Assembly (NCBI GenBank): GCA_965214095.1
Contig: OZ243938.1
Location: forward strand, 832,001-896,000
Length of the DNA stretch: 64,000 nucleotides
Direction of reading: 5' to 3'
Origin: Candidatus Poribacteria bacterium
Lineage (GTDB): Bacteria; Poribacteria; WGA-4E; WGA-3G
The notes under the pieces are model-generated. The model ran no database searches, was not told the DNA's origin, and saw only the letters and a program-made list of their open reading frames with translations. Positions 39,559 through 61,792 of the stretch are shown here, piece by piece (positions within the stretch are counted from its first letter, which is position 1; each line of letters starts with the position of its first letter). The translations under genes were made by a program, and so were the position numbers.

Positions 39559-41508
39559 CTAAAGCTTACTTACATCCCACAAAAGGACAGTCCCATCAGA
39601 ACTCACACTTGCAACCGTTTCCCCATCAGGCGTAAACGCAACATCATTGATAATCTGTGTATGTCCAGTAAACTTCTGTAGGAGTTCTCCAGATTGTGCA
39701 TCCCAAATGTGTACAACTTTTTTATTCTCAGAACTATTCGCCAGTAATCTACCATCAGGAGAACATGCAAGATGCGTTACAACTCCCGCATCTGATATCA
39801 ATGGACGTGTCAACTCACCTGTGGCAACATCCCAAAAACGGAGTGTTTCATCTGCACTACCACTTACAACCGTTTTCCCATCAGAAGAAAACACAACGTT
39901 ATTAACTTCCTTTTCATGTCCCGTTAACGTTGTAAGGAGAGTCTGACCGTCCACATCCCATATCATGATTGTCTTGTCATTGCTTCCACTTGCGAGCGTT
40001 TTTCCATCAGGTGAAAAAGCAACGGAATTGACTTCATCCGTATGTTCACTGAAAGTCATCAAGCAATCTCCAATGAGATAAAGTTGTCCCTTACAAATCT
40101 CCCATAAACAAACCTGATTGTCTGTGTCGCTAGTCGCCAGTATGTTACCATCGGACGAGAAACAAACAGAAGTGAGTTTTTCTTTATCACTATTAACACT
40201 ATAAAAATCCTTCTCATGATTTCCTATAAAACTACCAAGGAACCTTCCTGTTTGTCCATTCCACAAACGCGCTTTCATTGATGTGCCTACTGTAGCAAAG
40301 ATTTTCCCATCAGGAGAATATTCTATGTCAACAACATTACATCGCGGTTCAGTAGTTGTTTTAAGATGTTCGTAGGTGTGTGGATTCCAGAATAAGACTT
40401 CGGTATTTGCACCACATGTAAGGTTATTGCCATCAGGTGAAAAAGCAGCTGAGAAGATTGATGCATCTAAATGTCCTTTGATTGTGTTTTGAAGTTTTCG
40501 CGTAGAAGTATCCCATATTTGTATTGTTCCATCGTCAATACCAATAACTATTGTGTTACCATCTGGAGCATAAGCCACAGAATTAATCGGTTCACCATGT
40601 GCCATGCTGAATAATTGATCTAACGTATTAACATCCCAAAGACTCACATATTCCCAAGTACCACCAGTAACGAGTCTACTGCCATCGGGTGAAAACGCAA
40701 TATACTCATAACTCACATCCTGCTTTTCAGGACTTCTGAGATGCTTACCTGTGTTAACATCCCAAAATTGTAGAGGGTGCATATTGTTTCCAACGACAGC
40801 AAGTATTTTATTATCTGGAGAAAACGCAGCCTCAGTAATATTTGTTTCTATCAATATATCTCTTATCGGTTCACCTGTTCCTGTATCCCAATATTCAATA
40901 TATGAATATGATGTGTTGCTATCACAATATCCAACATTGATAAGTATGTCTTCATCAGGAGGAGCAAATACCATTGCGGATATTTCTGTATTATCAGTTT
41001 GACTAATTGTTCTTTTTAGTTTTCCAGTTCTTGTTTCCCATATCCTTATATTCCAGTGCTCACTTGTAGATGCGATTGTCTCACCGGAAGGACTAAATGC
41101 CAATAAGTTGAGATTTCTTTTACATCCAACACATCTCATCCTGATTTTACGTGTTTCAGTGTCCCAGATAATGATAATATTATCCTCACATCCCGAGGCT
41201 AATGTCTGTCCATCCGAACTAAATGCGATTGATGTAACAGGTGCGTCATGACCTGTGAGTAAGTCTATCGCTTGTAATGTATCAGCGTTATATAGCCAGA
41301 TGCCTATGGACGTTGCTACTGCAAGATACTTACCATCAGGGGAATATTTTATTTGGTTTATTCTACCCTTTCCCATACGAGCTTTTGCCCTCTCTGGTAA
41401 TCCTAATTGATTATGTATTTGAGAAAATGCTGTTATTGAGTAAAAAGTGAAAAAGAAGACAATAGAAATCAATGGTAATGTATTTAGTATAAGATTTAAT
41501 GAATTCAT
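39559..41508 (-). CDS. WD40 protein, array type A4 (signal peptide; C-terminus shared with A1-A3)
   Basis: Signal peptide ..TAFSQ; LPERAKARMGKG leader; WD40 repeats. Confidence 0.9.
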   Translation of the reverse strand: MNSLNLILNTLPLISIVFFFTFYSITAFSQIHNQLGLPERAKARMGKGRINQIKYSPDGKYLAVATSIGIWLYNADTLQAIDLLTGHDAPVTSIAFSSDGQTLASGCEDNIIIIWDTETRKIRMRCVGCKRNLNLLAFSPSGETIASTSEHWNIRIWETRTGKLKRTISQTDNTEISAMVFAPPDEDILINVGYCDSNTSYSYIEYWDTGTGEPIRDILIETNITEAAFSPDNKILAVVGNNMHPLQFWDVNTGKHLRSPEKQDVSYEYIAFSPDGSRLVTGGTWEYVSLWDVNTLDQLFSMAHGEPINSVAYAPDGNTIVIGIDDGTIQIWDTSTRKLQNTIKGHLDASIFSAAFSPDGNNLTCGANTEVLFWNPHTYEHLKTTTEPRCNVVDIEYSPDGKIFATVGTSMKARLWNGQTGRFLGSFIGNHEKDFYSVNSDKEKLTSVCFSSDGNILATSDTDNQVCLWEICKGQLYLIGDCLMTFSEHTDEVNSVAFSPDGKTLASGSNDKTIMIWDVDGQTLLTTLTGHEKEVNNVVFSSDGKTVVSGSADETLRFWDVATGELTRPLISDAGVVTHLACSPDGRLLANSSENKKVVHIWDAQSGELLQKFTGHTQIINDVAFTPDGETVASVSSDGTVLLWDVSKL

Positions 41509-41553
41509 TTCAATGTCGGCTCCTTAGGGTTTGTGCTGCCTTAGAGTATGAAA

Positions 41554-43383
41554 TTAACGTGGAGCATCCCATAGCAGCACAGTGCTGTCCCATCCTGCGG
41601 TCGCTATGGTGTGTCCATCTGGTGAATACCTAACAAAATATGTACGTTCATGCCTTGAACTTTTTTTGTGTTTATCAGTAATCGTATGAATTACCTCATA
41701 AGTATTAGCATCCCAAATTGATATAGTTTCTCTGGGACCGGTTCCCACAATTGTTTTACCATCTGGAGAGTATCCCTGAAAATAAGTTTTTTCCTCAGTT
41801 GTGATGGTCTTAACTGGTTCGTCATCGTCCATATTCCAAAACTGCATAGTGCCACCTTTTATCCAATTAACACATACAAACTTATCCCATCCTGGTGAGA
41901 TTGCTATTGAAGTCGCAGAAATTGTTTTTACTACCTTGCTTGTGTTTATATTCCAAAAACAGATTTCTGAATCATTCGTACTGACAAGGGATTCACCATT
42001 TGGTGAAAATGCCACCGTTCTAACATGACCTTGTCCGCAATCAATGACTTTTATAGTTTCCCCCGAATCAACATCCCACAAATAGATGTTACCATTGTTA
42101 TCTCCACCTGCAAGCATCTGTCCATCAGGACTAAATGCTACTGATTCAAAACCTTCATAGTCACCTTGGAAGGTGCGTCCCAATTTACCAGTTTTAGTAT
42201 TCAGGAGAAATATTGTGTCATATCGATTTGGACCAGGACCACATGCAAGTGTCACACCATCTGGTGCATAAGCGATACAAGCGATGTTAGTCTTACCTGG
42301 ATAGTAGGTTTTTTTTAGTTTGCCAGTGATGGCGTTCCATAATCGAAGACTGGGACCGCTACTTAAAGTAACAAGGGTACTTCCATCAGGTGAATAAGTC
42401 ATATCCCGAAACATCTCTGCATATCCAGTTAAAGTGCGAATTGATTTAGAAGTAGCAACATCCCAGAACTGAATTGTGCCGTCACCCCCGGCGTTTACAA
42501 GCGTATTTCCATCTGGTGAAAATGAAATATGATAGGTTGTATCAGCCGGACTATCAATAGTTTTGGATAGGTTGCAAGTGGCAACATCCCAAAACTGAAT
42601 TGTATCATCTCCGTAATTAGAACTGACAAGTATGTTATTAGTTGGACTGAATACTATTGTATGAACACCGTGTAGTGCTGAAGTGGCTTCTATTTCTATG
42701 TTTCGCTTCTTATGACTTGTATGCAGTTCCCACAACCGAATTGTCCCATCAGCACTACAACTTGCTAAATACTTACCATCATAAGAAAAAGCAATACCAG
42801 ATATATCACCTTTATGGCCGTTAAAGGATTGCAGGAATTCTCCAGAGTAAGCATTCCACATGTAGATCATTTTATCCCTTCCATAACTAACAAGAACTTT
42901 CCCATCTAGGGAATAGAGAACTTCAATCACAGCACCTGCGTGCCCTGCAAAGGTTTGTAGAAGTTCCTCAGATTCAACATTCCACAACCGAATTGTTTCG
43001 TCATTACCTCCACTTGCGAGTGTTTTTCCATCAGGACTAAACACAACTGAATAAACACTATCTTGATGTCCAATTAGTTTAGCCATATTCTCACCGGTTT
43101 GCAGATTCCATAGTAGTATTGTGCCGTCACAGCCATCGGAAGCAAGTAGTTGGTTGTCTGGACTGAAGGCAATAGTTGTACAACTTTCCATGTGTTCTAC
43201 AAATAGATTAAGTTCTTTACCAGTGTTTGCATCATACAACCAAATTCCAATTGTCCCTGCGGCAGCAAGCAGTTTGCCATCCGGGGAATGTGCCATATCA
43301 AATATGTGTCCCTTCCCTAAGCGTGCTTTTGCTCCTTCGGGTAATTTCCATTTTGTAACATCTTGATGAAGATTGTTTTGCAT
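41554..43383 (-). CDS. WD40 protein, array type B4
   Basis: MQNNLHQDVTKWKLPEGAKARLGKG; WD40 repeats. Confidence 0.9.
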   Translation of the reverse strand: MQNNLHQDVTKWKLPEGAKARLGKGHIFDMAHSPDGKLLAAAGTIGIWLYDANTGKELNLFVEHMESCTTIAFSPDNQLLASDGCDGTILLWNLQTGENMAKLIGHQDSVYSVVFSPDGKTLASGGNDETIRLWNVESEELLQTFAGHAGAVIEVLYSLDGKVLVSYGRDKMIYMWNAYSGEFLQSFNGHKGDISGIAFSYDGKYLASCSADGTIRLWELHTSHKKRNIEIEATSALHGVHTIVFSPTNNILVSSNYGDDTIQFWDVATCNLSKTIDSPADTTYHISFSPDGNTLVNAGGDGTIQFWDVATSKSIRTLTGYAEMFRDMTYSPDGSTLVTLSSGPSLRLWNAITGKLKKTYYPGKTNIACIAYAPDGVTLACGPGPNRYDTIFLLNTKTGKLGRTFQGDYEGFESVAFSPDGQMLAGGDNNGNIYLWDVDSGETIKVIDCGQGHVRTVAFSPNGESLVSTNDSEICFWNINTSKVVKTISATSIAISPGWDKFVCVNWIKGGTMQFWNMDDDEPVKTITTEEKTYFQGYSPDGKTIVGTGPRETISIWDANTYEVIHTITDKHKKSSRHERTYFVRYSPDGHTIATAGWDSTVLLWDAPR

Positions 43384-43651
43384 AGGAGTTTCTCCATTTT
43401 GTTAATTGATGATAAATGGCTGCATGTCGGGTTTCGTGCCTCTACCCGACCTACAAGATTCGTGTAGATAGAACGGTAGTCGCGCAATTCATTGCGCCTC
43501 TTATATTCAAATTCAAATGGGTAAATCATTTATGGAATTGGTAGACATTTGCAGTAATTGATACTCTCAGTATACCACAATTACATTGACAGATGCACTC
43601 TTCTCCACTTTGTATAACATTGTATAAAAGGCACTTCGTATATTGATATGC
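43320..43651. repeat. Duplicated B-leader plus intergenic segment with two REPs (copy at ~47345-47676; partial copy at 39382-39558)
   Basis: Near-identical sequence by eye, 4025 bp apart; contains GTCGGG..CCCGACCTAC and GTAGTCGCGCAATTCATTGCGC. Confidence 0.9.
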
Positions 43652-45490
43652 CTAAAACTTACTCATATCCCACAAAAGGACAGTTCCATCAGAACTGACA
43701 CTTGCAACCGTTTCCCCATCCGGAGAAAACGCAACATCATTGATAATCTGTGTATGTCCAGTAAACTTCTGTAGGAGTTCTCCAGATTGTGCATTCCAAA
43801 TGTGTACAACTTTTTCATTCTCAGAACTATTCGCCAGCAATCTACCATCAGGAGAACATGCAAGATGCGTTACAACTCCGGCATCTGATATTGATGGACG
43901 TGTCAACTCACCTGTGGCAACATCCCAAGAACGGATCGTTCCATCCGCACTACCACTTACAACCGTTTTCCCATCAGAAGAAAACACCAAGGTATTAACT
44001 TCCTTTTCGTGTCCAGTTAACGTTGTAAGGAGAGTCTGACTGTCAACATCCCATATCATGATTGTTTTGTCATTGCTACCACTTGCAAGCTTTCTTCCAT
44101 CTGGAGAAAATGCAACAGAATTGACTTCATCCGTATGTTCACTGAAAGTCATCAAGCATTCTCCAATCAGATAAAGTTCCCCCTTACAAATCTCCCATAT
44201 ACATACTTTGTTACCTCTGGTACCGGTCGCGAGCATACATCCATCAGGTGAAATTGCTATAGAAGAAAATGTTGTTCCATCTCCTCTGAAACTTCCGAGA
44301 AACCGACCAGTTGCTACATCCCACAAACGTGCTTTGTTAGAAGAATCTCTTGTCACAAGCATCTTTCCATCTCTTGAAAATTTGATTGAATGGACATCCG
44401 ATTGCCGAACAAAGGTAGTATTTATCTGTTTGCTATTTTGTAAATCCCACCACTGGACTTCGTTTTCTCCACCACAAGTCAACGTTTTCCCGTCAGGAGA
44501 AAATGTTACAGAATAGAGTTCCATTGGTCTGTGATCGAGTATGGTAATCCTTAATTCACCTGTGTTTGCATCCCACATTCGGACCGTGCCATCATCACTG
44601 CCACTGGCAATTGTCTCTCCATCAGGTGAATAAGAAACCGAAAGCACCTCGTCTCCGTGTGCCATACTATTCAGTAGTTCTGCTGTATCAACATCCCATA
44701 TATCAACTCTGTACCAACGGCTACCTGTCACAAGTTTGCTTCCATCCGGTGAAAACTCCATTGACTTAAACTCACCTACCCACTCAGTATTATTACTGAG
44801 TCGTTTACCAGTTTCTAACTCCCAAAACTGCAAAGGACCATCTCCTGTAGCAAGAATTTTCTGATCAGGTGAAATGGCAGCAGCATTAAAGTTAGTTTCA
44901 AGGTATATCTCTTTCACAATTTCATAGTCTTGTGTATCCCAATATGCAATTTGTGACTCCTTATTTTCGGTATTGCCTACGGTAAGAAGATGTGTACTAT
45001 CAGAAGTATATGTCATAATTGCGTACGGCGATAAATCTGTTAAACAAGATTTTAAAAGCTCACAAGTATCAACATCCCAAATCTTGATTGTCCAATATGC
45101 ACTTGCACTTGCAAGTTTATCTCCTGTCACATTGAATGTTAAATACTCATCTTCATCTTTATGTCCAACACAAGTGCCTTTTAGCCGACACGTCTTTGTA
45201 TCCCAAATATGGATCGCTTTGTTTTCACCACTCGTAGCGAAGAATTTTCCATCTGCGCTGAAGGCAATAGTCGTAACAGGTGTAGTATCCTCTGTCAGTA
45301 AGTCAAGTGCTTCTCCTGTTTCTGAATCATAGACCCAGACACCGATGGATGAAACGACAGCCAATCGTTTTCCATCAGGGAAAAATTTGACTTGATTTAT
45401 TTTTCCTCTCCCAAGACGGGTCTTTGCACCATCTGGTAATCCTACCTGATCGAGTTTATGAGAAATGGTTGCATCGTCGTTTATTAACAT
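43652..45490 (-). CDS. WD40 protein, array type A3
   Basis: QVGLPDGAKTRLGRG leader; WD40 repeats; AAGGAG RBS. Confidence 0.9.
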   Translation of the reverse strand: MLINDDATISHKLDQVGLPDGAKTRLGRGKINQVKFFPDGKRLAVVSSIGVWVYDSETGEALDLLTEDTTPVTTIAFSADGKFFATSGENKAIHIWDTKTCRLKGTCVGHKDEDEYLTFNVTGDKLASASAYWTIKIWDVDTCELLKSCLTDLSPYAIMTYTSDSTHLLTVGNTENKESQIAYWDTQDYEIVKEIYLETNFNAAAISPDQKILATGDGPLQFWELETGKRLSNNTEWVGEFKSMEFSPDGSKLVTGSRWYRVDIWDVDTAELLNSMAHGDEVLSVSYSPDGETIASGSDDGTVRMWDANTGELRITILDHRPMELYSVTFSPDGKTLTCGGENEVQWWDLQNSKQINTTFVRQSDVHSIKFSRDGKMLVTRDSSNKARLWDVATGRFLGSFRGDGTTFSSIAISPDGCMLATGTRGNKVCIWEICKGELYLIGECLMTFSEHTDEVNSVAFSPDGRKLASGSNDKTIMIWDVDSQTLLTTLTGHEKEVNTLVFSSDGKTVVSGSADGTIRSWDVATGELTRPSISDAGVVTHLACSPDGRLLANSSENEKVVHIWNAQSGELLQKFTGHTQIINDVAFSPDGETVASVSSDGTVLLWDMSKF

Positions 45491-45611: not shown

Positions 45612-47408
45612 TCATTCTACTTCTGGAACATTCCACAACTTCACCGTACTATCCCATCCAGCAGTCGCAAGTGTGCGTCCATCCGGAGAATAGGACAGAA
45701 ACCATATCCCTTCAATATGTCCATGCGTATAAGAAGCAATTAATTTACCAGTATTTGCATCACAAAAACAGATCTGATCCTTTTCCCAATATGTATAAGC
45801 GAATGTCTCTCCATTAGGAGAATAAACTACATTACTTGCTTTCTTATCAATTGTCTTTATCGGCTCATCACCATCAACATTCCAAAATTGAAGTTCAATG
45901 TCATTAATACATAGAAAGGTTTTGAAATCTGGAGAAGGTGCAACCGTGTGTCCCTGTACCTTTTTGATGGTTTCTCCAGTAGTTAAATCCCAAAATCGAA
46001 TTTCTCCATCAGTTGAACTGAAAAGTAATTGATCGTCCTGCAAAAATACAAGGTCTTTTATTTCATCTGATTCGGATTCAAGTATCTTCGTGTTTTTACC
46101 AGAAGTAACATCCCACAGATAAACGTTACCATGTTCATCACCACTTGCAAGCATCTTTCCATCAACGGAAAACGCAACAGATGTTATATCATTCAGTTGT
46201 CCTACAAAAGTCTGTTCAATCTCATTTCTTTCAGGATTTAGAATATTTATAGCGTTCTTTCTATCATCTTCATACGCTAATCTTATCCCATCTGGTGCAT
46301 AAGCTATACACCCAACTCTCTGTTTATATAGATGAATTGTTTTTAAGTGCTCACACGTTTGTGTATCCCACAAACGGAGTCTACGAGCACCATCCAATAC
46401 TGCAAGCGTGTTAGAAACAGGTGAATGTGTCATTCGCATAAACATCTGTGCGTATCCATCAAGTGTCCTTGTAGGTGAACCTAATGCAACATCCCAAAAT
46501 CGGATAGTGCCGTCACTGTGTGTATTTGCCAAAGTGTTTCCATCTGGAGAAAATATGACAAAGTAAGTTGTATCTGGTGGACTTTGTATAGTTTTTATTC
46601 GTTCTCCTTTAGTAACATCCCAAAACTGAATCACATCATCATCATAGTTGTTGCTAACGAGTGTTTTCCCATCTGGACTGAAAACAACTGCATTTACTCC
46701 ATCGGCATCCGTAGTAGCAGTTATTGTATTACGTAAGTTTCCTGTATCAGTATCCCAAATCCTGATCTTAGCATCCTGATTTCCACTTGCAAGCCTTCTA
46801 CTATCGTGTGAAAAGGAAATTGATGAAATTGTACCTGTATGTCCTTTAAGTGTGTGCAGGAACTCTCCTGTGTGTGCGTTCCAAAGGTGTATCATTTCAT
46901 CCGTACCATAACTTGCCAGTAACTCTCCGTTTGGTGAACACATCACTTCGGATACATGACCAGCATGTCCAGCAATAGTCAAAATCTGTTTACCTGATGC
47001 AACGTCCCAAAAACGAATTAATTCGTCATTTCCACCGCTAATAAGTATCTGTCTGTCTTGACTAAAAGTTACAGTTCTGACTCTATCATTATGTCCTGAG
47101 AGTGTCAACTGATGTTCGCCCGTTTGGACATCCCATATTATTATTGAGTTATCATTACTCCCGCTTGCCAAGAGTGAATTATCTGGACTAATAGCAACGC
47201 TACTCACACCATCCGTATGTCCTAAAAACAGATTGAGTTCTTTCCCAGTATGTGCATCATAAAGCCAAACACCGATAGTGCTACCCACTGCAAATAGCGA
47301 ACCATCTTTAGAATATGTAATATCAAAAGGATAACCTTTTCCAAGTCGTGCTTTTGCTCCTTCGGGTAATTTCCATTTTGTAACATCTTGATGAAGATTG
47401 TTTTGCAT
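45612..47408 (-). CDS. WD40 protein, array type B3
   Basis: N-terminus identical to B4; body closely matches the WD40 part of 53939-56335. Confidence 0.9.
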   Translation of the reverse strand: MQNNLHQDVTKWKLPEGAKARLGKGYPFDITYSKDGSLFAVGSTIGVWLYDAHTGKELNLFLGHTDGVSSVAISPDNSLLASGSNDNSIIIWDVQTGEHQLTLSGHNDRVRTVTFSQDRQILISGGNDELIRFWDVASGKQILTIAGHAGHVSEVMCSPNGELLASYGTDEMIHLWNAHTGEFLHTLKGHTGTISSISFSHDSRRLASGNQDAKIRIWDTDTGNLRNTITATTDADGVNAVVFSPDGKTLVSNNYDDDVIQFWDVTKGERIKTIQSPPDTTYFVIFSPDGNTLANTHSDGTIRFWDVALGSPTRTLDGYAQMFMRMTHSPVSNTLAVLDGARRLRLWDTQTCEHLKTIHLYKQRVGCIAYAPDGIRLAYEDDRKNAINILNPERNEIEQTFVGQLNDITSVAFSVDGKMLASGDEHGNVYLWDVTSGKNTKILESESDEIKDLVFLQDDQLLFSSTDGEIRFWDLTTGETIKKVQGHTVAPSPDFKTFLCINDIELQFWNVDGDEPIKTIDKKASNVVYSPNGETFAYTYWEKDQICFCDANTGKLIASYTHGHIEGIWFLSYSPDGRTLATAGWDSTVKLWNVPEVE

Positions 47409-47676
47409 AGGAGTTTCTCCATTTTGTTAATTGATGATAAATGGCTGCATGTCGGGTTTCGTGCCTCTACCCGACCTACAAGATTCGTGTGGACAGAACA
47501 GTAGTCGCGCAATTCATTGCGCTTCTTATATTCAAATTCAAATGGGTAAATCATTTATAGAATTGGTAGACATTTGCGGTAAATGATACTCTCAGTATAC
47601 CACAATTACATTGACAGATGCACTCTTCTCCACTTTGTATAACATTGTATAAAAGGCACTTCGTATATTGATATGC

Positions 47677-51452: not shown

Positions 51453-51506
51453 AACTTCTCCTCTTTCTGTTTTTACTTCAAATCCGGTAGGTACCCCTCG
51501 TTGTTC

Positions 51507-51880: not shown

Positions 51881-51908
51881 ACGCTTAGAATCGCATTTAT
51901 TAATATGC

Positions 51909-53741
51909 CTAAAGCTTACTTACATCCCACAAAAGGACAGTCCCATCAGAACTCACACTTGCAACCGTTTCCCCATCCGGAGAAAACGCAACATCATTGA
52001 TGTTTTGTGTATGTCCAGCAAACGTCTCTAGGCGTTTGCCAGAATGTACATCCCAAATGTGTACAACTTTCTCATTCTCAGAACTATTTGCAAGCAACCT
52101 GCCATCAGGAGAACATGCAAGATGCGTTACAACTCCCGCATCTGATATCGGTGTCCGTGTCAACTCACCTGTGGTAACATCCCAAAAACGGAGTGTTCCA
52201 TCTGCACTACCACTTACAAGTGTATCGCCATAAGAAGAAAACACCACGTTATTAACTTCCTTTTCGTGTCCAGTTAACGTTCTAAGGTGAGTCTGACTGC
52301 CAACATCCCATATCATGATTGTCTTGTCATCGCTGCTACTTGCAAGCATTTTTCCATCTGGAGAAAACGCAACTGAATTGACTTTATCCGTATGTTCACT
52401 GAAAGTCATCAAGCGATCTCCAATGAGATAAAGTTGCCCCTTACAAATCTCCCATATACATACTTTGTTATCTCTGGTACCAGTCGCGAGCATACATCCA
52501 TCAGGTGAAATTGCTATAGAAGAAAATTTTGTTCCATCTCCTCTAAAACTTCCGAGAAACCGACCAGTTGCTACATCCCACAAACGCGCTTTGTTAGAAG
52601 AATCTCTTGTCACAAGCATGTTTCCATCTGCTGAAAATATGATTGAATGGACATCCGATTGCCGAACAAAGGTAGTATTTATCTGTTTGCTATTTTGTAA
52701 ATCCCACCACTGGACTTCGTTTTCTCCACCACAAGTCAACGTTTTCCCGTCAGGAGAAAATGCTACAGAATAGAGTTCCATTGGTCTGTGATCAAGTATG
52801 GTAATATTTACTTCACCTGTGTTTGCATCCCACATTCGGACCGTGCCATCATCACTGCCACTGGCAATTGTCTCTCCATCAGGTGAATACGATATTGAAA
52901 CCACCTCGTCTCCGTGTGCCATACTGATCAGTAGTTCTGCTGTATCAACATCCCAAACATCGACTCTGTCCCAACGGCTACCAGTCACAAGTTTTCTTCC
53001 GTCAGGTGAAAATTCCATAGATTTAAACTCACCAACCCACTCCGTATTATTACTGAGTCGTTTACCGGTTTCTAATGCCCAAAACTGCAGAGGACCATCT
53101 CCTGTTGCAAGTATTTTCTGGTCTGTTGAAATGGCAGCAGCATTAAAGTTAGTTTCAAGGGACATCTCTTTCACAATTTCATAGTCTTGTGTATCCCAAT
53201 ATGCAATTTGTGACTCCTTATTAGCGGTATTGCCTACGGTAAGAAGATGTGTACTATCAGAAGTATATGTCATAATTGCATCTGACGAAAAATCTGTTAA
53301 ACATGTCTTTAGAAGTTGACAGGTACCAACATCCCATATCATGATTCCCCCACTTGTACTTGCCAGTTTATCTCCTCTCCCATTGAATGTTAAATACTCA
53401 ACATCATCTTTATTTCCAACACAAGTACCTTTGAGCAGACACGTCTTAGTATCCCAAATTTGGATTGCTTTGTTCTCACCACTCGTAGCGAAGAATTTTC
53501 CATCTGAGCTGAAGGCAATAGTCGTAACAGGTGCAGTATCCTCTGTTAGTAAGTCAAGTGCTTCTCCTGTTTCTGAATCATAGATCCAGACACCGATGGA
53601 TGAAACAACAGCCAATCGTTTTCCATCGGGGAAAAACTTTACTTGACTTATTTTTCCTCTCCCAAAACGGGTTTTTGCACCATCTGGTAATCCTACCTGT
53701 GCATTTTTATGAGTGAAAGTAGTGTCTTCGTTTATTTCCAT
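51909..53741 (-). CDS. WD40 protein, array type A1
   Basis: QVGLPDGAKTRFGRG leader; WD40 repeats. Confidence 0.9.
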   Translation of the reverse strand: MEINEDTTFTHKNAQVGLPDGAKTRFGRGKISQVKFFPDGKRLAVVSSIGVWIYDSETGEALDLLTEDTAPVTTIAFSSDGKFFATSGENKAIQIWDTKTCLLKGTCVGNKDDVEYLTFNGRGDKLASTSGGIMIWDVGTCQLLKTCLTDFSSDAIMTYTSDSTHLLTVGNTANKESQIAYWDTQDYEIVKEMSLETNFNAAAISTDQKILATGDGPLQFWALETGKRLSNNTEWVGEFKSMEFSPDGRKLVTGSRWDRVDVWDVDTAELLISMAHGDEVVSISYSPDGETIASGSDDGTVRMWDANTGEVNITILDHRPMELYSVAFSPDGKTLTCGGENEVQWWDLQNSKQINTTFVRQSDVHSIIFSADGNMLVTRDSSNKARLWDVATGRFLGSFRGDGTKFSSIAISPDGCMLATGTRDNKVCIWEICKGQLYLIGDRLMTFSEHTDKVNSVAFSPDGKMLASSSDDKTIMIWDVGSQTHLRTLTGHEKEVNNVVFSSYGDTLVSGSADGTLRFWDVTTGELTRTPISDAGVVTHLACSPDGRLLANSSENEKVVHIWDVHSGKRLETFAGHTQNINDVAFSPDGETVASVSSDGTVLLWDVSKL

Positions 53742-53897: not shown

Positions 53898-53938
53898 AAG
53901 AGTGTTTTCAGACCAAAATTGCTTATACCTAACTCACG

Positions 53939-56335
53939 TTATATTACATCATATTCTACTTCTGGAACATTCCACAACTTCACCGTACTATCCCATCCAG
54001 CAGTCGCAAGTGTGCGTCCATCTGGAGAATAGGACAGAAACCATATTCCTTCTATATGTCCATGTGTATAAGAAGCAATTACTTTACCAGTATTTGCATT
54101 ACAAAAACAGATCTGATCCTCTTCCCAATGCGTATAAGCGAAAGTCTCTCCATTAGGAGAATAGACTACATTACTCGCTTTCTTATCAATTGTCTTTATC
54201 GGCTTATCACCATCAACATTCCAAAATTGAAGTTCAAAGTCATTAATACATAGAAAAGTTTTGAAATCTGGAGAAGGTGCAACCGTGTGTCCCTGTGCCT
54301 TTTTGATGGTTTCTCCAGTAGTCAAATCCCAGAATCGAACCTCTCCATCAGTTGAACCGGCAAGCAATTGTCCATCCTTTGAAAACACAAGATTTCTTAT
54401 TTCAAGCGACATGGATTCGAGCATCTTCGTGCTTTTGCCAGAAGTAACATCCCACAGACAAACGTTTCCATGTTCATCGCCACTTGCAAGCATCTTTCCA
54501 TCAGCTGAAAACACAACTGATGTAATGCCATTCAAATGTTCTATAAAAGTCCGTTCTATCTCATTTTTTTCAGGATTTAGAATATTTATAGTGTTGTTTC
54601 GTTCATCTCTATAAGCTAACCTTATTCCATCTGGTGCATAGGCTATACAACCGACTCTCTGTTTATATAGATGAATTGTTTTCAAGTGCTCACACGTTTG
54701 TGTATCCCACAAACGGAGTCTACGATCACCATCCAATACTGCAAGCGTGTTGGAAACAGGTGAATGCGTCATAAATACATACATCTGTGCGTATCCATCA
54801 AGCGTCCTTGTAGGTGAACCTGATGCAACATCCCAAAATCGGATAGTGCCGTCAGAGTGACTGTTTGCCAAAGTGTTTCCATCTGGAGAAAATGCAATGT
54901 AGTAAGTTGTATCTGGTGGACTTTGAATAGTTTTTGTTTGTTCTGCTTTAGTAACATCCCAAAACTGTATCACATCATCATTGTAGTTGTTGCTAACGAG
55001 TGTATTCCCATCTGGACTGAAAACAACTGCATTTACGCCATCGGCATCCGTAGTAGCAGTTATTGTATTGCGTATGTTTCCTGTATCAGTATTCCAAATT
55101 CTGATCTTACCATCCTGATTTCCACTTGCAAGCCTTCTACTATCGGGTGAAAAAGAAATTGATGAAACTGAACCTGAATGTTTTGTAAGTGTGTGCAGGA
55201 ATTCTCCCGTGTGTGCGTTCCACAGATGTATCATTTTATCTGTCCCATAACTTGCAAGTAACTCTCCGTTTGACGAACACATTACTTCGGATACACCTCC
55301 AGCATGTCCAGCAATAGTCAACATCTGTTTGCCTGATGCAACGTCCCAAAAATAAATCAATTCATCATCTCCGCCGCTAATAAGTATCTGTCCATCTTGA
55401 CTAAAAGTTAAAGATCTTACACCATCAGTATGTCCTGAGAGTGTCAACTTAAGGTCACCCGTTTGGAGATCCCTTAATGTAATTTTATTGTCTTCACCAT
55501 CATTCGCCAAGAGTGAATTATCAGGACTAATTGCAACACTGTGAACCCCTTCCGTGTGTTCCAAAAACAGATTGAGTTCTTTCCCAGTATGTGCATCATA
55601 AAGCCAAACACCGATAGTGCTTGCTGCTGCAAATAGCGAACCATCTTTGGAATATGTAATATCAAAAGGATAACCTTTTCCAAGTCGTGCTTTTGCACCA
55701 TCAGGTAATTTCCAACTTGTAACATCTTGTGATTGTAAAGATTCTGCTGTCATAACTTCTCCTCTTTCTGTTTCTACGCCAAACTCCTGTCGTAGCAGTG
55801 TGCGAATATCTCTTAATCTACTCTTTACTGTACCTGCAGGCATCTTGAATTTCTCAGCAATTTCTCTGATATTCCATAATTCCAAGTAGTATAATTCCGC
55901 AACAGAACGCACTTTCTTTGGCAACTGATGTATCGCTTCTTTAACATCGGTGATTAGTTGCGTATTGTAATATCGCCTTGTAGCGTCTTGATCAATATGT
56001 TCCACCAATACGGACTCCTGATGAGGTATTTCACTATATCTATGATGTGTTGTTTTATAATACCGTTTGCATGCGTTGAGTGCGATGCGGTGTAGCCACG
56101 GTCCAAAACTATCAACATTTCTCAATCCAGTGATATTTTGCCACACAGACATCCAAATGTCATTACTAATCTCTTCGGCATCTTGGAGATGTCTTGAATT
56201 AGCGACAATGACACGCCAAATCCGAGGTGTATAACGGGTCATGAGTTCTGCAAAGGCTGCTTCATCCCTGTCTTGAACGAGTTGAATCAGTTCTGTATCT
56301 GCAAGGTCACTGAACACCAGAAACTCATTGGTCAT
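53939..56335 (-). CDS. ECF sigma factor-WD40 fusion (array type B1)
   Basis: Region 2 DAEEI..DIW...SFGPWLHRIALN; region 4 LPKKVR...EIA.....GTVKSRL; then LPDGAKARLGKG and WD40 repeats; no TM segment. Confidence 0.92.
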   Translation of the reverse strand: MTNEFLVFSDLADTELIQLVQDRDEAAFAELMTRYTPRIWRVIVANSRHLQDAEEISNDIWMSVWQNITGLRNVDSFGPWLHRIALNACKRYYKTTHHRYSEIPHQESVLVEHIDQDATRRYYNTQLITDVKEAIHQLPKKVRSVAELYYLELWNIREIAEKFKMPAGTVKSRLRDIRTLLRQEFGVETERGEVMTAESLQSQDVTSWKLPDGAKARLGKGYPFDITYSKDGSLFAAASTIGVWLYDAHTGKELNLFLEHTEGVHSVAISPDNSLLANDGEDNKITLRDLQTGDLKLTLSGHTDGVRSLTFSQDGQILISGGDDELIYFWDVASGKQMLTIAGHAGGVSEVMCSSNGELLASYGTDKMIHLWNAHTGEFLHTLTKHSGSVSSISFSPDSRRLASGNQDGKIRIWNTDTGNIRNTITATTDADGVNAVVFSPDGNTLVSNNYNDDVIQFWDVTKAEQTKTIQSPPDTTYYIAFSPDGNTLANSHSDGTIRFWDVASGSPTRTLDGYAQMYVFMTHSPVSNTLAVLDGDRRLRLWDTQTCEHLKTIHLYKQRVGCIAYAPDGIRLAYRDERNNTINILNPEKNEIERTFIEHLNGITSVVFSADGKMLASGDEHGNVCLWDVTSGKSTKMLESMSLEIRNLVFSKDGQLLAGSTDGEVRFWDLTTGETIKKAQGHTVAPSPDFKTFLCINDFELQFWNVDGDKPIKTIDKKASNVVYSPNGETFAYTHWEEDQICFCNANTGKVIASYTHGHIEGIWFLSYSPDGRTLATAGWDSTVKLWNVPEVEYDVI

Positions 56336-56380
56336 AAACAGATATCCAATTAGACAAATAATGTAATTTGAGAAGGATGA

Positions 56381-59064
56381 CTATAGATACGGTTTACAAT
56401 CCCATACAAGAATTGTACCGTTCCTACAACCTGTAGCAAGCATTGTGCCATTTGGTGAGAAAGCCATTGAATGCACGAACGAATTATGTCCATTAAATGC
56501 ATGAATTTGTTTGCCTGAAGATATATCCCATATCCGTATTGTCAAATTCTCTCGGTCCTTATTCCGCCAAGTTGCTCCTGCAAGATACTTACTGCACGCT
56601 GAAAACACTAATGGACATGTCTTTCGGTAGCCTTCATTTTGAGGAATTACGCGAACTGTTTTATACTCCTTAGCACACCACAAACGGAATTCTTGGTTTA
56701 ATTCTCCAGCAATCAGATTACCACATGGAGAAAGACAATATCTAATGGATCGCTTGGTGTTTCCATAACTAATTCTGCAATCTCCTTACCCAAATCAACA
56801 TCCCATACTCTTGCAGTGTTATCCTTTGATCCACTCACTATTCGTTTCCCATCAGGTGAAAATGCTAATGACAATATTTCATCAGAATGACCAGTAAAAT
56901 GCATCGGACTCTCAGGATTTTCAAAATGCCACACATACACTGTCCAATCTTTGCCTCCAACAGCGAGTTGATCTCCAGACGGTGCAAAAACCTTAGGATG
57001 ATACCGTTCTCTCAGTACAGATGCTGTTTTGATCTTTACCTTAAGTTTTTCTGGATTATTGACATCCCATATCTTCGTCTCATCATCATAATTCATTGCA
57101 AGTATTTCTCCAGAAGGTAAAAGGGTCATAGCACTTATCCATTCACCTTTGAGAAATACATCTTGGACACATTTCTTGTCAACATCCCATAATGCGAAAC
57201 CTAGTCTTAGATTGCTTGCCAGTGTGTGATCATCAACCCACATCACCTTCGGTTCTGACCACGGGAGCTGTGGCTCTTGTCCTAAAGTGATAGTAGGTAT
57301 TCCATCATCTATATGATTGATAGGCGAGTTATTTGTGAAGTGTTTTGCTTGGGCAATGGCTATAGATTTTGCAAAGCCATAACCTCCTATACCTACAGAT
57401 ATCTCAAGTAACTTTTCTCTATTTTCAACATTCCACACTTCTATAGGCTTGGATGAACTATAATACACTAATGCAAATAACCTGCCATCTTCTGTGTAAA
57501 ACGGATCGTCAAAATTTGGGAATTCCGTTTTCTGTGTTCCTGATGCGAGATCCCATACCCGTAATGTTCCATCACTGGATGCAACGAATTGTCCACAAGG
57601 TGAAATAGTGACTGCATCTACCCAATCCTCATGACCTGAAAAGTGTGCTATTTGTTCTCCAGATGTTATATCCCACACTGATACACAACGGTCAATACGT
57701 TTATCATCTTTCAAAGTTTCGTCGGAAACTGCTCCAGCTATCAGGTGACTATCTGAAGAAAAAACAAATTCTCTACCCACAAATTTGATAATTTGCTTAC
57801 CTGTTTTGGGATCCCAAACGTAAGTCTGAGTTCCCTCTGTATCAGGATTCAGGCATACATTATCGTCATTGTACACTTTTGAATTCCCAGCAGTCGCTGC
57901 GAGTAAGTTGCCATCTGGTGAAAACTCAAGCTGCACTATATCATTTGATTTCCATTCATGATTTCCGCGATCCATCTGTGCGATACGTGTCCCATTCTGA
58001 ATATCTAAAACTGTAACAATACCGTCACCTTCAGCAGCAGCAACCCATTTGCCATTGGAAGAACAAGCGAGTTCAGCAAAAGCATCTTGATCCTCTATTT
58101 GTAGAACACACTTTCCACTCTGGACATCATATACCTTGAGGATGTTGTCAAGAGTATCTGCCACAATCCATTTGCTGTCATGAGAAAACGCAATAGAAAA
58201 GATACCGTGTTGTGGTTCCCATAACGAAATCGGTAACATTGTTGACGTATCATACCACCACAACCCCATTCCAGTACCTACTGCAATACACGTTCCATCG
58301 GGTGAGAGTTTGATATCATCTATACTACCCTTACCGAATCGGACAATTACGTCCTCTGGTAGAGCCCAAGTATTTCCAGATGGATCGTCTGCTATTGCGT
58401 TTAGCATTTTAGGTTTTAGGTTATGTGTCACTTCGCCATTTGACTTACTTGATTGATGTGTACGATCGGTAATTTTTTCCTTGTTTCTTCCTCTTGATGG
58501 ATCGACACCAAATTCCTTTCGCAAAAGTTCGCGTGTTTCCCTTAACTTTGTTTTCACTGTGCCTTCGGTCAGTGTGAACTCAGCTGCAATGTCCTTAACA
58601 CTCCACGACTCTAAGTAATACAATTCTGCCACTGAACGCACCTTTTGTGGAAGGTGATGAACCGCTTCCTTGGCATCAGCAATTAACTGCATGTTTCTAA
58701 ACCGTGCAGTAGCTGCTTGATCTATATGTTCAATTATCTCAGAATGTAGATGTGGGATTTCACTTCGTGCTTGTCTTGCCAAGGTGTAATAACGTTTGCA
58801 TGCGTTGAGTGCGATGCGGTGTAGCCACGGTCCAAAACTATCAACATTTCTCAATCCAGTGATGTTTTGCCAAACAGATATCCAGATGTCAGCATGTATT
58901 TCTTCTGCATCTTGCCGTTGTCTTGAATTAGAAGAGATTATCCCCCAAATTCTATGCGAATAACGTGACATCAGTTCCGCAAGAGCTGATTCATTTCTAT
59001 TCTGTACAAGCTGAATAAGTTCTGCATCTGTTAGGTCACTCAAAGCAAGAAAATTGTTGGACAT
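56381..59064 (-). pseudogene. ECF sigma-WD40 fusion with a 1-bp frameshift near the 3' end
   Basis: Restoring one base in the run at 56731-56733 turns DIVFLHVVI* into DIVFSPCGNLIAG and joins ORF 56381-56683 (about 894 aa); may be a sequencing error. Confidence 0.8.
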
Positions 59065-59097
59065 AAAAACAGATTCCTGAGCCAGTTTTAATGTATA

Positions 59098-59124
59098 GAG
59101 GAGAGTTTTATAGTAAAAGGTTTA
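59098..59124 (-). promoter_or_regulatory. Putative ECF-type promoter
   Basis: TAAACC(TTT)-N17-CCTC(TATA), with the same spacing as the motif at 62004-62031. Confidence 0.35.
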
Positions 59125-59160
59125 AAAAAATAAAAATCGTATTTTGTAATTTTATGACAA

Positions 59161-61767
59161 TCACAGATAAGGTGTTAGGTCCCAAAGCAGGATAGTGCCT
59201 TCATGGCTTGCACTGGCTAAGAGTTTGTTGTCTGGAGAGAAGGCGAGTGCATGTATATCTGTCGTATGTCCCCGAAATGTGGCAAGATGCTTACCACTCG
59301 CGACTTCCCACAAACAGATTGGAAAGTTCTTTGTCTTGTTGTTCCAAGATGCTTCATTTACAATGTACTGTCCGCACGAAGAAAACACAGGAGAATCAAC
59401 ATGTGCACATTCTTCGGGCAGCGACAACATCTTCTCAAGCAGAAAGCGTTTCATTCCGTACAAGTTTTCGTCATCTTTGCAGGCCTTACGAGATCTGATA
59501 TCCCAAATTAGCATGTTTTCTTTTCCACTACAACTAAGGTACCGCTCACACGGAGAAAATTCGATGATTCCCGTTACGTTATCACTTGGAAACGTTTCTA
59601 CCTTTTCACCAAGTTCCATATCCCACAGTCTGACATTATTAGACTTTGATTCACTTGCGAGTAATTTTCCATCATGACTGAATTTCAAGGTATCAACAAA
59701 ATCACCATCATCTTCGTCATCGTTGTTATCACTTGGTTCAAGGGGATGTGTTAGTTCGTACATTTTTTTTTCATTTTGCACATCCCAAACATGTAAATTG
59801 CCATCTCCGTCTGCATAGGCGAATAGTGTGCCTGTTGGTGCTAATGCAGGATGTGCACTCCAATATTCTCGTCCCGTTGCTTCAATAAGTGGTATTCCAT
59901 TGCATTCAGTTTCCCAAAGATTAACAGTCTCGTCTTGGATACTTGCGACATAGAGTTTACCGCTATTGGTTTTATATACAAACTGATTTTTTCCAGCAGA
60001 TACCTCTTTAATTGCTGGACGCGAACGTTTACTTTCAATATCCCACAATACGACACCTTCTTGATAGTGTTTCACTGCTAACGTCTTTCCATCTCCGGAG
60101 AATATCATTGAATCAGGGAAGGAGATAGGAGAATGTATGAATTGGCGTTTGACAGGATTGTCAGTAGTCCATACATTTACATATTCATGTCTACGTTCGT
60201 AGGCAAGTTGTGAGCCGTTTGAAAATATGACATTATTTCCCCATTCAAATATTGAGCAGAATTCTGTTGCAGTCTGTCCCCATACTTCGTCGATGTATAA
60301 CATCTCATTACTTTCAAGATCACGGACTGAGATAGTAGTTGGACCTGTATCGTCATAATGGACAACCGCTGCGCGTAAAACGCCGTCTGGTGTATAGGAA
60401 GGCACAATACGATACACGTGACCATAATCAGTATATGTCTCAGCTTTTTGCCACGTATTGACATCCCAGACGTACACTGTGCCATCTTCACCACCAGAAG
60501 CGAGGAACTGTCCACACGGTGAAAAGCAGAGAGTCGTGACCCAATATTTATGTGCTGATAGGCACGCAATTTGTTCGCTACTTTCCATACTCCACACTAC
60601 TATTGACTCTGCATCGTCAGAGGTAGCGGAACTACACGTAGACGCTATCAATCGAGCATCGGGTGAGAAACAAATAGGACGGTAGTAGCCGCCTTTTTCA
60701 ATGTCTGCAGTCAATCTGGCAAAAGGTTTACCGGTTTCTACATGCCAAACTTCAACAACAGAAGTATTCCAATATGCAACGGCAATATATCGATTATCGT
60801 GGGAAAAGGTCATTCCTTCTAAGAAAGTCTCTGATTTGACCTGTGTCAAGCATGTGCCATCCTGGACATTCAAAATCTTAAGTATTCGATCTGAAAAACT
60901 AGCAGCTATCCATTTTCCGTTAGGTGAAAAAGTAACAGATTCAACTACTCCCCGTTCTACCTCATAAAGTGCGACAGGTGAAAGCGTTGCGAGGTCATAT
61001 ATCCAAAGTCCTATGCAGGTGCCAATAGCAAGATACTGTCCATCAGGTGAGAACGCCATTTTAGGTTCACTTCCGCGTCCTAATCTTGCAATCGCACCTT
61101 CAGGGAGTGCCCAGGTTGTTACATCACCTTCAAATGAACCTACCGGCACGGGAGTTGAAGTGTCTTGGTTTTCCATAAAACTGTCTCCTTGTCCTTGATA
61201 AAGGTCATCTTGCAATATAAGTTCTTCCTGTTTTAGACGATTTCGCGCTCGGTTGAGCCGACTTTTTACCGTGTTCAGAGATACACCTAAAGCCTCACTA
61301 ATGGCTTTACAAGACATTTCTCCGAGATAGTGGAGGATCATCGTTGTGCATTCTGTCCCCGGCAACATTTCCAGAAGGTTATAAACGATTTCGCTACGAC
61401 GTTCTGCGGATGCTTTTTCACGTTGTTCTGCTACATAAGAGACATAAGCAGTTTTTTCCAATATTTCTTCACTGGTAATATCCAGCGATTGCATCACAAT
61501 TCTTTTCTTTCGCAGACATGCTATACACTGCCGATTTGCAATCGTAAAGAGCCATCCAGAAAACCGATTCGGATCTTGTAGGGTAGGTAGTTTTTTGTAT
61601 ACTTGAAGGAATGTATCTTGAGTTATTTCCTCTGCAATATGATAATCACCGACTTTACGCCATGCAAACGTATGTACACTATGACGATATCTGTTAACTA
61701 AATCACTAAATGCCCCTTCGTCACCTGACAATATATCATAAATCAATTGAACGTCATCTTTTACCAT
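59161..61767 (-). CDS. ECF sigma factor-WD40 fusion
   Basis: AEEITQDTFLQVY...FSGWLFTIANR; LP......ILHYL..MS...IS..LGVSLNTVKSRLNRAR; LPEGAIARLGRG; WD40 repeats; AGGAG RBS. Confidence 0.92.
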   Translation of the reverse strand: MVKDDVQLIYDILSGDEGAFSDLVNRYRHSVHTFAWRKVGDYHIAEEITQDTFLQVYKKLPTLQDPNRFSGWLFTIANRQCIACLRKKRIVMQSLDITSEEILEKTAYVSYVAEQREKASAERRSEIVYNLLEMLPGTECTTMILHYLGEMSCKAISEALGVSLNTVKSRLNRARNRLKQEELILQDDLYQGQGDSFMENQDTSTPVPVGSFEGDVTTWALPEGAIARLGRGSEPKMAFSPDGQYLAIGTCIGLWIYDLATLSPVALYEVERGVVESVTFSPNGKWIAASFSDRILKILNVQDGTCLTQVKSETFLEGMTFSHDNRYIAVAYWNTSVVEVWHVETGKPFARLTADIEKGGYYRPICFSPDARLIASTCSSATSDDAESIVVWSMESSEQIACLSAHKYWVTTLCFSPCGQFLASGGEDGTVYVWDVNTWQKAETYTDYGHVYRIVPSYTPDGVLRAAVVHYDDTGPTTISVRDLESNEMLYIDEVWGQTATEFCSIFEWGNNVIFSNGSQLAYERRHEYVNVWTTDNPVKRQFIHSPISFPDSMIFSGDGKTLAVKHYQEGVVLWDIESKRSRPAIKEVSAGKNQFVYKTNSGKLYVASIQDETVNLWETECNGIPLIEATGREYWSAHPALAPTGTLFAYADGDGNLHVWDVQNEKKMYELTHPLEPSDNNDDEDDGDFVDTLKFSHDGKLLASESKSNNVRLWDMELGEKVETFPSDNVTGIIEFSPCERYLSCSGKENMLIWDIRSRKACKDDENLYGMKRFLLEKMLSLPEECAHVDSPVFSSCGQYIVNEASWNNKTKNFPICLWEVASGKHLATFRGHTTDIHALAFSPDNKLLASASHEGTILLWDLTPYL

Positions 61768-61792
61768 CAGAGACTCCTAATACAATCTATTT

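Follow-up and report, generated by a model that had tools for sequence, protein, structure and literature searches.

Tandem ECF sigma–WD40 and free WD40 propeller genes in a Candidatus Poribacteria genome: a probable two-gene signalling module whose copies exchange parts

WD40-extended ECF sigma factors and the Poribacteria locus

Sigma factors of extracytoplasmic function (ECF) in group ECF57, formerly ECF01-Gob, are by description the closest described relatives of the genes reported here, which form a tandem array at positions 39559–61767 of a 64,000-nucleotide stretch of DNA from a Candidatus Poribacteria bacterium (contig OZ243938.1, positions 832,001 to 896,000; hereafter, the window). 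ECF57 comprises planctomycetal ECF sigma factors with WD40 extensions (PMC8999054, PMC7826278), for which regulation through protein interaction of the C-terminal extension has been proposed (PMC8999054). These proteins occur at 5.3 copies per planctomycetal genome (PMC7826278) and possess two conserved cysteines with a proposed role in a sigma2–sigma4 link (PMC8999054); Gemmataceae are dealt with in PMC8567305. According to the available portions of the reviews, no member of the WD40-extended ECF sigma factors has been experimentally characterised. Our locus resembles ECF57 in having only sigma2 and sigma4, a long WD40-like C-terminal extension, and many paralogues per genome (PMC8999054, PMC7826278, PMC8567305). 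In contrast to planctomycetal ECF57, the array belongs to Poribacteria and its three fusions (G1–G3) lack a membrane helix, the comparison being with ECF57 as described. Moreover, instead of two conserved cysteines, C89 was the sole cysteine among the invariant columns of 86 aligned homologues, an alignment (A1) that covers the G3/G2 type only and in which no other cysteine column conserved at 90% or more was listed; G1 has further cysteine residues. The tandem units, sigma-less copies, and sigma/propeller reshuffling described below are not mentioned for ECF57 in the available portions of these sources. Likewise, within the available main-text portions of the literature on ECF sigma factors, WD40 proteins, Poribacteria, and gene conversion, tandem sigma–WD40/WD40 arrays with sigma loss or swapping are not described.

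The region is probably a lineage-specific, tandemly amplified two-gene signalling module, in a Poribacteria genome of sponge-symbiont type, whose copies exchange parts via ordinary homologous recombination. The first gene of this module encodes an ECF sigma factor joined to a double WD40 propeller of 14 blades (B) with no membrane helix, and the second a free double propeller (A). G5, G7, and G9 are sigma-B genes after deletion of the sigma part, which only the G3–G4 unit has kept, and the units exchange sequence through unequal crossing-over and gene conversion. The breakpoints lie in conserved stretches, namely the linker plus the first-strand motif W.LP.GA.ARLGKG, the last A blades, and spacers bearing repetitive extragenic palindromic (REP)-like elements. 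As a consequence of recombination among units, related genomes differ in unit number, in the presence of sigma, and in the propeller borne by the same sigma. The sigma-B protein is predicted to be a cytoplasmic one-component regulator, its propeller may act as a protein-binding regulatory domain controlling sigma availability, and A may be its cognate partner, while the sigma-free B proteins could compete for the same partners or ligands or be retained as spare modules. Divergence between paralogues would fall mainly on the top (binding) face of the blades, and recombination would proceed on evolutionary or population time rather than as a programmed switch. In closely related genomes, the locus provides variants of a single module in which nature has swapped domains or deleted sigma, and these variants, together with a conserved start at the domain boundary, make propeller control of sigma directly testable. 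It also documents how a large signalling repertoire in an uncultured animal symbiont arises when genes are duplicated in tandem and recombine homologously at ends that are conserved in structure.

Ten minus-strand open reading frames (ORFs) of 598–868 aa, named G1 to G10, filled the locus, and all ten proteins matched Pfam WD40 far above cut-off (PF00400 E-values of 5e-41 for G1, 3e-36 for G2, and 7e-76 for G3). The first ~200 residues of all three of G1, G2, and G3 also matched Sigma70_r2 (57.7, 37.1, and 39.2 bits, respectively; cut-off 24) and Sigma70_r4_2 (46.9, 37.3, and 35.2 bits; cut-off 25.7) above the Pfam cut-offs, as well as the sigma70-ECF model TIGR02937 (91.7, 72.2, and 76.5 bits; cut-off 42.9); no narrower NCBIfam subfamily model reached its cut-off for these N-termini. 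Only r2, r4, and ECF-type models matched within the first 210–230 residues, in keeping with the ECF criterion that regions 1.1 and 3 are absent. G1–G3 are ECF (group IV) sigma-70 factors with sigma2, sigma4, and a compact sigma part of ~190 aa, and no anti-sigma domain was detected in the fusions. A Kyte–Doolittle scan (19-residue window, threshold 1.6) revealed no membrane-helix segment at or above the threshold in G1–G9, the maximum being 1.31, and a membrane-type sigma fusion from the same genome, included as a control, reached 2.34. Hydropathy also gave no export signal in G4–G9; residues 2–31 of G10 correspond to a hydrophobic N-terminal signal or anchor.

The downstream genes G4–G10 alternated between two families whose propellers are ~29% identical to each other. 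The A family comprises G4, G6, and G8 (mutually 82–87% identical) and G10 (56–58%), and the B family comprises the G3 propeller together with G7 (86%, or 89.1% over 1787 nt), G5 (66–68%), and G9 (46–50%). The Pfam, TIGR02937, and hydropathy results bear out the first-pass annotation, which had described three consecutive soluble-type sigma–WD40 fusions without a transmembrane helix, followed on the same strand by alternating B and A genes. Its finer comparisons also held, namely that the third B gene (G7) matches the propeller of the first (G3), and that the second (G5) begins with the linker of the first (..KTERGEVMTAESLQSQDVTKWKLPEG.. in G5 versus ..ETERGEVMTAESLQSQDVTSWKLPDG.. in G3).

When considering the whole genome, 58 Sigma70_r2 matches were counted, 31 of them in open frames of at least 800 aa, and 144 WD40-like ORFs were identified among 5874 ORFs of at least 100 aa, with 12 ORFs combining sigma and WD40. 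The WD40-like ORFs were arranged in some 25 tandem arrays, and most of these ORFs are not adjacent to a sigma gene; single-linkage clustering at 38% identity placed 74 in one cluster and did not resolve families. Given 144 WD40-like ORFs and 31 long sigma fusions in one genome, and a group such as ECF57 already described, the designation of the locus as a new system was overstated. Of 61 sampled genomes of the same family, 56 had G3-type sigma domains (E ≤ 1e-40), for the most part within open frames 800–940 aa long. A search of 5.8 billion proteins with residues 1–230 of G3 yielded 125 matches at E ≤ 1e-10 among 1295 candidates, every named one from Poribacteria. WD40-extended ECF sigma factors are abundant in Planctomycetes and, from the present data, in Poribacteria.

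Tandem units and exchange of sequence between copies

Self-alignment of the DNA uncovered a 5039-bp match with 81.3% identity and a period of 4038 bp, pairing G5–G6–G7 (1–991) with G7–G8–G9 (1–997). The array consists of four tandem ~4-kb copies of a two-gene unit composed of a sigma-B and an A gene, three of the copies lacking sigma. The units were aligned as U1 (G3–G4), U2 (G5–G6), U3 (G7–G8), and U4 (G9–G10), and the closest pair of units changed along the alignment. Specifically, U1 and U3 were closest across most of the B body (77–97%) and shared 96–99% identity in mid-A, where U2 reached only 62–78%, while U2 and U3 were 97–100% identical at the 3' ends of both B and A, in the B–A spacer, and over the 5' half of A. 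U3 and U4 were 95–100% identical in the 268-bp spacer 5' of B and over the initial codons. In its core, U4 was only 50–65% identical to the other units, yet the final ~570 nt of G10, together with ~180 nt of downstream sequence, were 90–96% identical to G6 and G8. G7 joins an upstream region and first 13 codons of G9 type to a body of G3 type. This mosaic identity along the units is a hallmark of repeated unequal crossing-over and gene conversion. The REP-like pattern GCGCAAT..ATTGCGC had 234 matches over both strands of the main contig, and such hairpins are carried by the spacers.

In terms of dynamics, the locus recalls the fungal NWD/HNWD genes of Podospora, which belong to the NOD-like receptors (NLRs) and whose WD40 sensors are reshuffled between paralogues by unequal crossing-over or ectopic gene conversion, with variation concentrated at ligand-facing positions (PMC13449251). 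In contrast to these genes, the output domain here is a sigma factor, and gene segments rather than single repeats are exchanged between tandem genes; NACHT or NB-ARC gave no match among the best 25 Pfam families for each of the ten proteins. The near-identical repeats (80–100%) within a gene that characterise WD40 NLRs with high internal conservation (HIC) were not found in G1–G10, where self-BLASTN of 36000–64000 gave no intragenic DNA repeat at E ≤ 1e-10; internal repeats (64–70%) were restricted to the flanking gene at 62201–64000.

The units share 95–100% identical stretches hundreds of bases long in which short-read contigs break, so the alternating array could be a mis-joined or over-expanded repeat. 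The order of the array was examined with contigs from two DNA runs of one study and two RNA runs placed on 41800–61790. The unique parts of G1, G2, G3, G5, G7, and G9 showed 0 mismatches in the contigs of the two DNA runs, and depth over the unique paralogue parts was even (35–42 and 125–156, respectively), from which it follows that all paralogues are present at single-copy level; the two DNA runs may be the assembly's own source. Where contigs were placed, spacer depth rose about 5- to 20-fold because of the REP-like hairpins. No credible alternative junction appeared in the contigs of the two DNA runs: all listed joints had sides of 20–31 nt, most of them in REP-bearing spacers, and were therefore treated as repeat artefacts. 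The genome was assembled as 5.2 Mb in 4 contigs, and arrays of the same kind occur in the independent chromosome-level assemblies L001 and L002. Taking these observations together with the single-copy depth, an assembly artefact is extremely improbable. The RNA-library contigs derive from related strains and may include DNA, and bins that they leave uncovered carry no meaning. In one of them, X19 (1044 nt, with about 96% identity), a G5-type propeller directly follows a G3-like sigma, the arrangement of the related locus L004; X19 is from a related strain and may be DNA carry-over.

Loci such as pilE/pilS and vlsE generate antigenic variation by gene conversion, and donors of this cassette type are silent, promoterless, or truncated. 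Our array resembles them in placing a complete headed gene beside same-strand partial relatives able to donate sequence, and G3 might be regarded as an expression site into which the sigma-less propellers, as donor cassettes, are often copied, giving phase-variable sensing. Programmed diversification of this kind would fit the same sigma with different propellers in different genomes, the breakpoints at the conserved linker motif, the conserved termini with variable central blades, and the near-identical spacers 5' of G7 and G9. However, we consider it very unlikely, since the putative donors are complete, translatable, and selectively maintained genes with their own Shine–Dalgarno (SD) sequence and ATG and a ratio of nonsynonymous to synonymous substitutions (dN/dS) of 0.25–0.35. 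Moreover, G5 has stable orthologues (94%) in two other genomes, of which one is fused and the other is not, and synonymous divergence (dS) of 0.19–0.6 between copies shows that exchange happens rarely. Neither a recombinase nor a reverse transcriptase was identified adjoining the array, where three neighbours matched no Pfam/NCBIfam family and the rest are WD40 genes; the contigs of the two DNA runs held no well-supported alternative junction, and no evidence of high-frequency unidirectional conversion was found at the array. The suggestion of the first-pass annotation that propellers recombine is upheld by the mosaic units and by the variation of unit number and sigma presence in five related loci, but not as a programmed system: neither a recombinase nor cassette logic was seen, and nothing points to programmed switching. 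A dedicated diversification system is not supported; the sigma-less copies are whole genes that have starts of their own and evolve under purifying selection, in some cases with stable orthologues elsewhere; nor are the propellers free-standing donors, the B genes being by origin sigma-B genes that lost sigma. By analogy, the module appears partly like the sigma/anti-sigma hybrids in design and like the fungal NLR WD40 genes in evolutionary dynamics, and does not correspond to a pilS/vls cassette system.

Sigma domains and propellers in related loci

Five loci from other Poribacteria metagenome-assembled genomes (MAGs), L001 to L005, were selected for comparison; they bear the same gene families in differing numbers, with one to four units among the related genomes. 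L001 contains G1, a free propeller, G2, G3, A, and a further sigma-propeller/A-like pair, and L002 contains G1, a G1-like free propeller, an intact G2, a sigma-B gene composed of the G3 sigma and a G7-like propeller, A, and a G5 without sigma (94%). L003 has two tandem sigma-B genes (G5-type and G3-type) followed by A. In L004, G1 is followed by a G5-type propeller (94% to G5) fused to a G3-type sigma and by an A gene of G6 type (90%), directly after which comes the flank found downstream of G10 in the window. In L005, a G9-type propeller (79%) lies behind a membrane helix (residues 217–244) and a G1-type sigma (62% to G1, 26–30% to G3), and a signal-bearing G10 orthologue (68%) follows the fusion. 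At L005:4864–9617, this G9-type propeller behind sigma and helix and its partner with the signal sequence are both predicted to be outward-facing. G7 and G9 begin with MQNNLHQD.., a segment located inside the L005 fusion right after the membrane/linker part. The five-locus comparison shows that the sigma-less B genes of the window are the same genes as the sigma-fused ones elsewhere. A separate protein, P0094 (660 aa), starts within sigma4 (MHQLPKKVR..) and runs into a G3-type propeller; it may represent a partial sigma deletion or a mis-called start.

The WD40 proteins could instead be chiefly eukaryote-like, acting on the sponge host or the cell envelope, with the sigma fusions as a side branch and the free propellers independent of sigma. 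WD40 is among the eukaryote-like repeat proteins highly abundant in Poribacteria single-cell genomes (PMC3909097), most of the 144 WD40-like ORFs of our genome are not beside sigma, and signal sequences were found on G10 and on the neighbour at 62201–64000+. On the other hand, G4–G9 carry no export signal, the B genes are those fused to sigma elsewhere, and the sigma-B/A pairing recurs in the window and in all five related loci, which makes this explanation unlikely.

The sigma domain of G3 shared 96% identity with its L002 counterpart and 94% with its L004 counterpart, with dS values of 0.173 and 0.160, respectively. The baseline dS between the window and L004 ranged from 0.11 to 0.18 (0.135 for the gene at 38583, 0.149 for that at 36507, 0.112 for G5, and 0.181 for G6), so the sigma domains of G3, L002, and L004 are at orthologue-level divergence, the same as that of flanking orthologues. 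The propeller behind this sigma is of G3 type in the window, G7-like in L002, and of G5 type in L004, and propeller dS reached 0.60 between G3 and G5 and 0.27 between G3 and G7. The L002 propeller was at a dS of 0.129 to G7 versus 0.285 to the G3 propeller, and the L004 breakpoint fell near nt 560–620 of G3, within the linker and first-strand motif. Likewise, the two sigma domains of L003 were 94% identical (dS 0.168), with a dS of 0.654 between their propellers. In maximum-likelihood trees of 21 sigma domains and 24 propellers, sigma domains grouped by lineage and propellers by type (G5-type clade 100/100, G3-type 96/94). In approximately unbiased (AU) tests, uniting the sigmas that carry G5-type propellers in one clade was rejected (p = 4.6e-4), as was a clade of the sigma tree when imposed on the propeller data (p = 1.7e-6). 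Two of the checks proposed in the first-pass annotation came out in its favour: different propellers were found on the same sigma (three propellers in three genomes, sigma dS 0.16–0.17), and the separate sigma and propeller trees were significantly incongruent. These results fit either sigma homogenisation between tandem paralogues or a propeller swap, and both require recombination at the domain boundary.

All seven sigma-less ORFs, G4–G10, were intact over about 600 codons. By the Nei–Gojobori method, dN/dS was 0.26–0.28 for G5 versus its orthologues, 0.35 for G7 versus the L002 propeller, 0.25 for G9 versus L005, 0.29–0.39 among A copies, and 0.13–0.20 for sigma domains. The D–A and B–C loops form the top face in the usual WD40 geometry, and across 21 B propellers these loops had a mean column entropy of 0.88 versus 0.61 for bottom loops and 0.59 for strands (Mann–Whitney U test, p = 0.0014 and 7e-5, respectively); the most conserved parts were the first strand (0.13) and blade 14 (0.20). 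The variability of the top face fits diverging binding specificity on a conserved scaffold and does not amount to evidence for positive selection.

Neutral birth-and-death might also account for the B genes without sigma and for part of the A genes, which would then be relics of duplication and deletion, drifting towards loss and without a part in sigma signalling. A frameshift near 56735 ends the G2 ORF at 56713, and the remaining ~121 aa are encoded in a different frame as far as 56381, while the orthologues of G2 are intact (895 aa in L002 and 937 aa in L001); across the G2 region, 56105–58822, the window agrees with the short-read contigs from two runs. G9 lacks sigma and helix and hence an export signal, while G10 keeps its signal, so the predicted compartments of the pair are mismatched. 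The varying unit number and a REP-like element at the G5 deletion junction point in the same direction. Specifically, the first 26 codons of G5 (51453–51530) consist of a REP-like hairpin, gcgcaatgaattgAgcgactac, with one mismatch to the spacer copies, and a linker remnant without a ribosome-binding site; L002 has the same junction. However, we regard a fate of neutral loss as fairly unlikely, given that the seven ORFs are intact, that their dN/dS of 0.25–0.39 is similar to that of fused copies, that G5 without sigma persists in L002 as well as in the window (dS ~0.10), and that SD sites are preserved at the starts of G4 and G6–G10 and at the inner ATG of G5.

Domain boundary, opposing points, and surroundings of the array

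An AlphaFold model of G3, built on the 86-row alignment, had a mean predicted local distance difference test (pLDDT) of 83.9 and a predicted template modelling score (pTM) of 0.70. It placed sigma2 at 13–96 and sigma4 at 118–185, joined by a low-confidence linker, followed by the sigma–propeller linker at 186–202 (pLDDT below 50) and 14 blades made up of 56 strands; a first lone strand ahead of blade 1 comes from the conserved N-terminal motif (..LPDGAKARLGKG). The best solved structural matches were tandem double propellers: the 14-blade WD40 propeller of Nostoc punctiforme (PDB 2ymu, chain A; E-value 7.9e-49, 31% identity over 590 columns), Aip1 (1nr0), and axonemal 600-aa WD proteins (template modelling score 0.77). 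In contrast to G3, 2ymu is without a sigma domain. Complex prediction between the G3 sigma domain (1–205) and its own propeller (206–798) spoke neither for nor against binding (score 0.01, mark 0.32).

The G3 linker DNA contains agaggagaagttATG, an in-frame SD and ATG at codon 195. The same element was found in G5, L002, L004, and L001, with the close variant agaggagatgttATG in the G5-type fusion of L003, and it lies ahead of the probable start of G5 and of the point where the L002 G5 ORF starts, both without sigma. G1 bears caaggagacagttttATG, with an in-frame SD and ATG at codon 198 (61174–61195; ATG about 61174–61176), and no such site was found in the G2 linker. An SD also precedes the start ATG of G4 and G6–G10 and, in G5, the inner ATG at 51452. 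The genome has 31 sigma-fusion ORFs that reach 700 aa or more; 18 of them contain an in-frame SD and ATG at codons 183–207, just past sigma4, and these represent 18 of the 35 in-frame SD plus ATG sites in those ORFs. The linker site was usually the sole one, or among very few, in ORFs of 800–1100 codons. The position of this start suggests that the fusions arose via in-frame joining of a sigma gene to the partner gene behind it, with the partner start kept; deletion of sigma would then leave a translatable gene. The sigma/anti-sigma hybrid ECFs (IutY, ECF243; ECF48/52/53) are alike in that a partner is fused in frame behind sigma4 and unfused versions exist, and the fusions described here similarly keep an apparent ribosome-binding site and start of the partner gene. 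In contrast, the hybrids are membrane proteins activated by proteolysis (PMC8999054), while the fused domain here is a predicted soluble double propeller.

The internal linker start could possibly yield a sigma-free isoform from the fusions. Extending this, two-in-one genes would make both the fusion and a free propeller, free propellers, made from internal starts or from G5, G7, and G9, would act as soluble WD40 anti-sigma factors or titrators, and recombination at the conserved first-strand motif would swap propellers onto sigma frequently enough within sponge-symbiont populations. This is fairly unlikely; if true, it would amount to a WD40-based soluble sigma/anti-sigma system with exchangeable input modules and a mix-and-match sensory repertoire.

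Several points weigh against the reading of the region as a recombining signalling module. The contacts between A and B and between sigma and propeller are deduced solely from conserved adjacency. A sigma-70 promoter consensus scan was at background (68 sites versus 58.6 ± 7.2 expected), and no ECF-type promoter motif was found in the consensus promoter/terminator scan, beyond which no further motif search was made. Short-read contigs break in the repeats, and the unit order depends on the assembly and on similar arrays found in independent MAGs of chromosome level. The groups used in each AU test were defined from the tree of the other partition, after that tree had been seen. Overall dN/dS is well below 1 and thus gives no sign of gene-wide diversifying selection, and the higher loop variability may derive partly from relaxed constraint. 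In view of the G2 frameshift, and of the loss of the sigma/membrane part in G9 beside the signal-bearing G10, some copies may be decaying. As for the internal start, 16 of the 18 SD plus ATG sites lie in a common paralogous context (..KEE[PTNL]|M[IL][RK]E..) and hence are not independent, and the linker SD may be a by-product of the coding sequence.

Table 1. Positions of the genes, spacers, and flanking features of the array in the window.
Feature	Position	Strand	Description
G1	59161..61767	-	Soluble ECF sigma (aa 1-190) and WD40 double propeller, 868 aa
G2	56381..59064	-	ECF sigma/WD40 fusion, frameshifted; ORF is 56713-59064
G3	53939..56335	-	ECF sigma (aa 1-185), disordered linker (186-202), 14-blade B-type WD40; unit 1
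Linker SD and ATG of G3	55751..55770	-	In-frame Shine–Dalgarno (agaggag) and ATG at codon 195
G4	51909..53741	-	Free A-type double propeller; partner gene in unit 1
G5	49641..51530	-	B gene without sigma, unit 2; likely true start is the ATG at 51452
G6	47677..49518	-	A-type propeller, unit 2
G7	45612..47408	-	B gene without sigma, unit 3; recombinant
G8	43652..45490	-	A-type propeller, unit 3
G9	41554..43383	-	Divergent B gene without sigma, unit 4
G10	39559..41508	-	Divergent A-type propeller, unit 4; N-terminal signal or anchor
Spacer 5' of G7	47409..47676	-	268 bp, REP-like hairpins; 95-100% identical to spacer 5' of G9
Spacer 5' of G9	43384..43651	-	268 bp; twin of 47409-47676
G4-G5 spacer	51531..51908	-	378 bp, REP-like hairpins; 95-99% identical to A-G5 spacer of L002
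Flanking gene	38583..39368	-	Conserved, 261 aa, lipoprotein-like signal (..LFMTGC..); marks downstream end of array
Upstream flanking WD40 gene	62201..64000	-	Signal peptide; runs past window edge; 631 aa in genome

The window holds 17 WD40 genes, and those beyond the array are located at 62201–64000+, at 36507–38561, and, as a group of five, at 10238–20957. The flanking gene at 38583–39368, situated between WD40 genes, was 98% identical in L004 with a dN/dS of 0.08. Pfam and NCBIfam gave no family for the neighbours at 38583–39368, 34848–36413, and 33949–34431, and an Rfam scan of the window gave no match. The five genes at 10238–20957 form a second same-strand array (666–781 aa) with ends overlapping or nearly abutting. 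Between the two WD40 arrays, at 21433–29201, genes encoding a sulfatase, two C-type-lectin-domain proteins, a metallo-beta-lactamase-fold protein, and a PhyH dioxygenase are located; such a set of genes is typical for sponge symbionts.

Elsewhere in the genome, a second large class of sigma fusions was identified, of ~1000 aa, with a membrane helix and a BNR/Sortilin-type propeller. On the main contig, an array of about 15 sigma fusions of ~1000 aa extends over 3228977–3285826, and L006 is one member of it. Each fusion contains a MIREAL..NLTENIMQE segment that is conserved, a single membrane helix, and a propeller of BNR/Sortilin type, and one truncated member without sigma is situated at 3232687.

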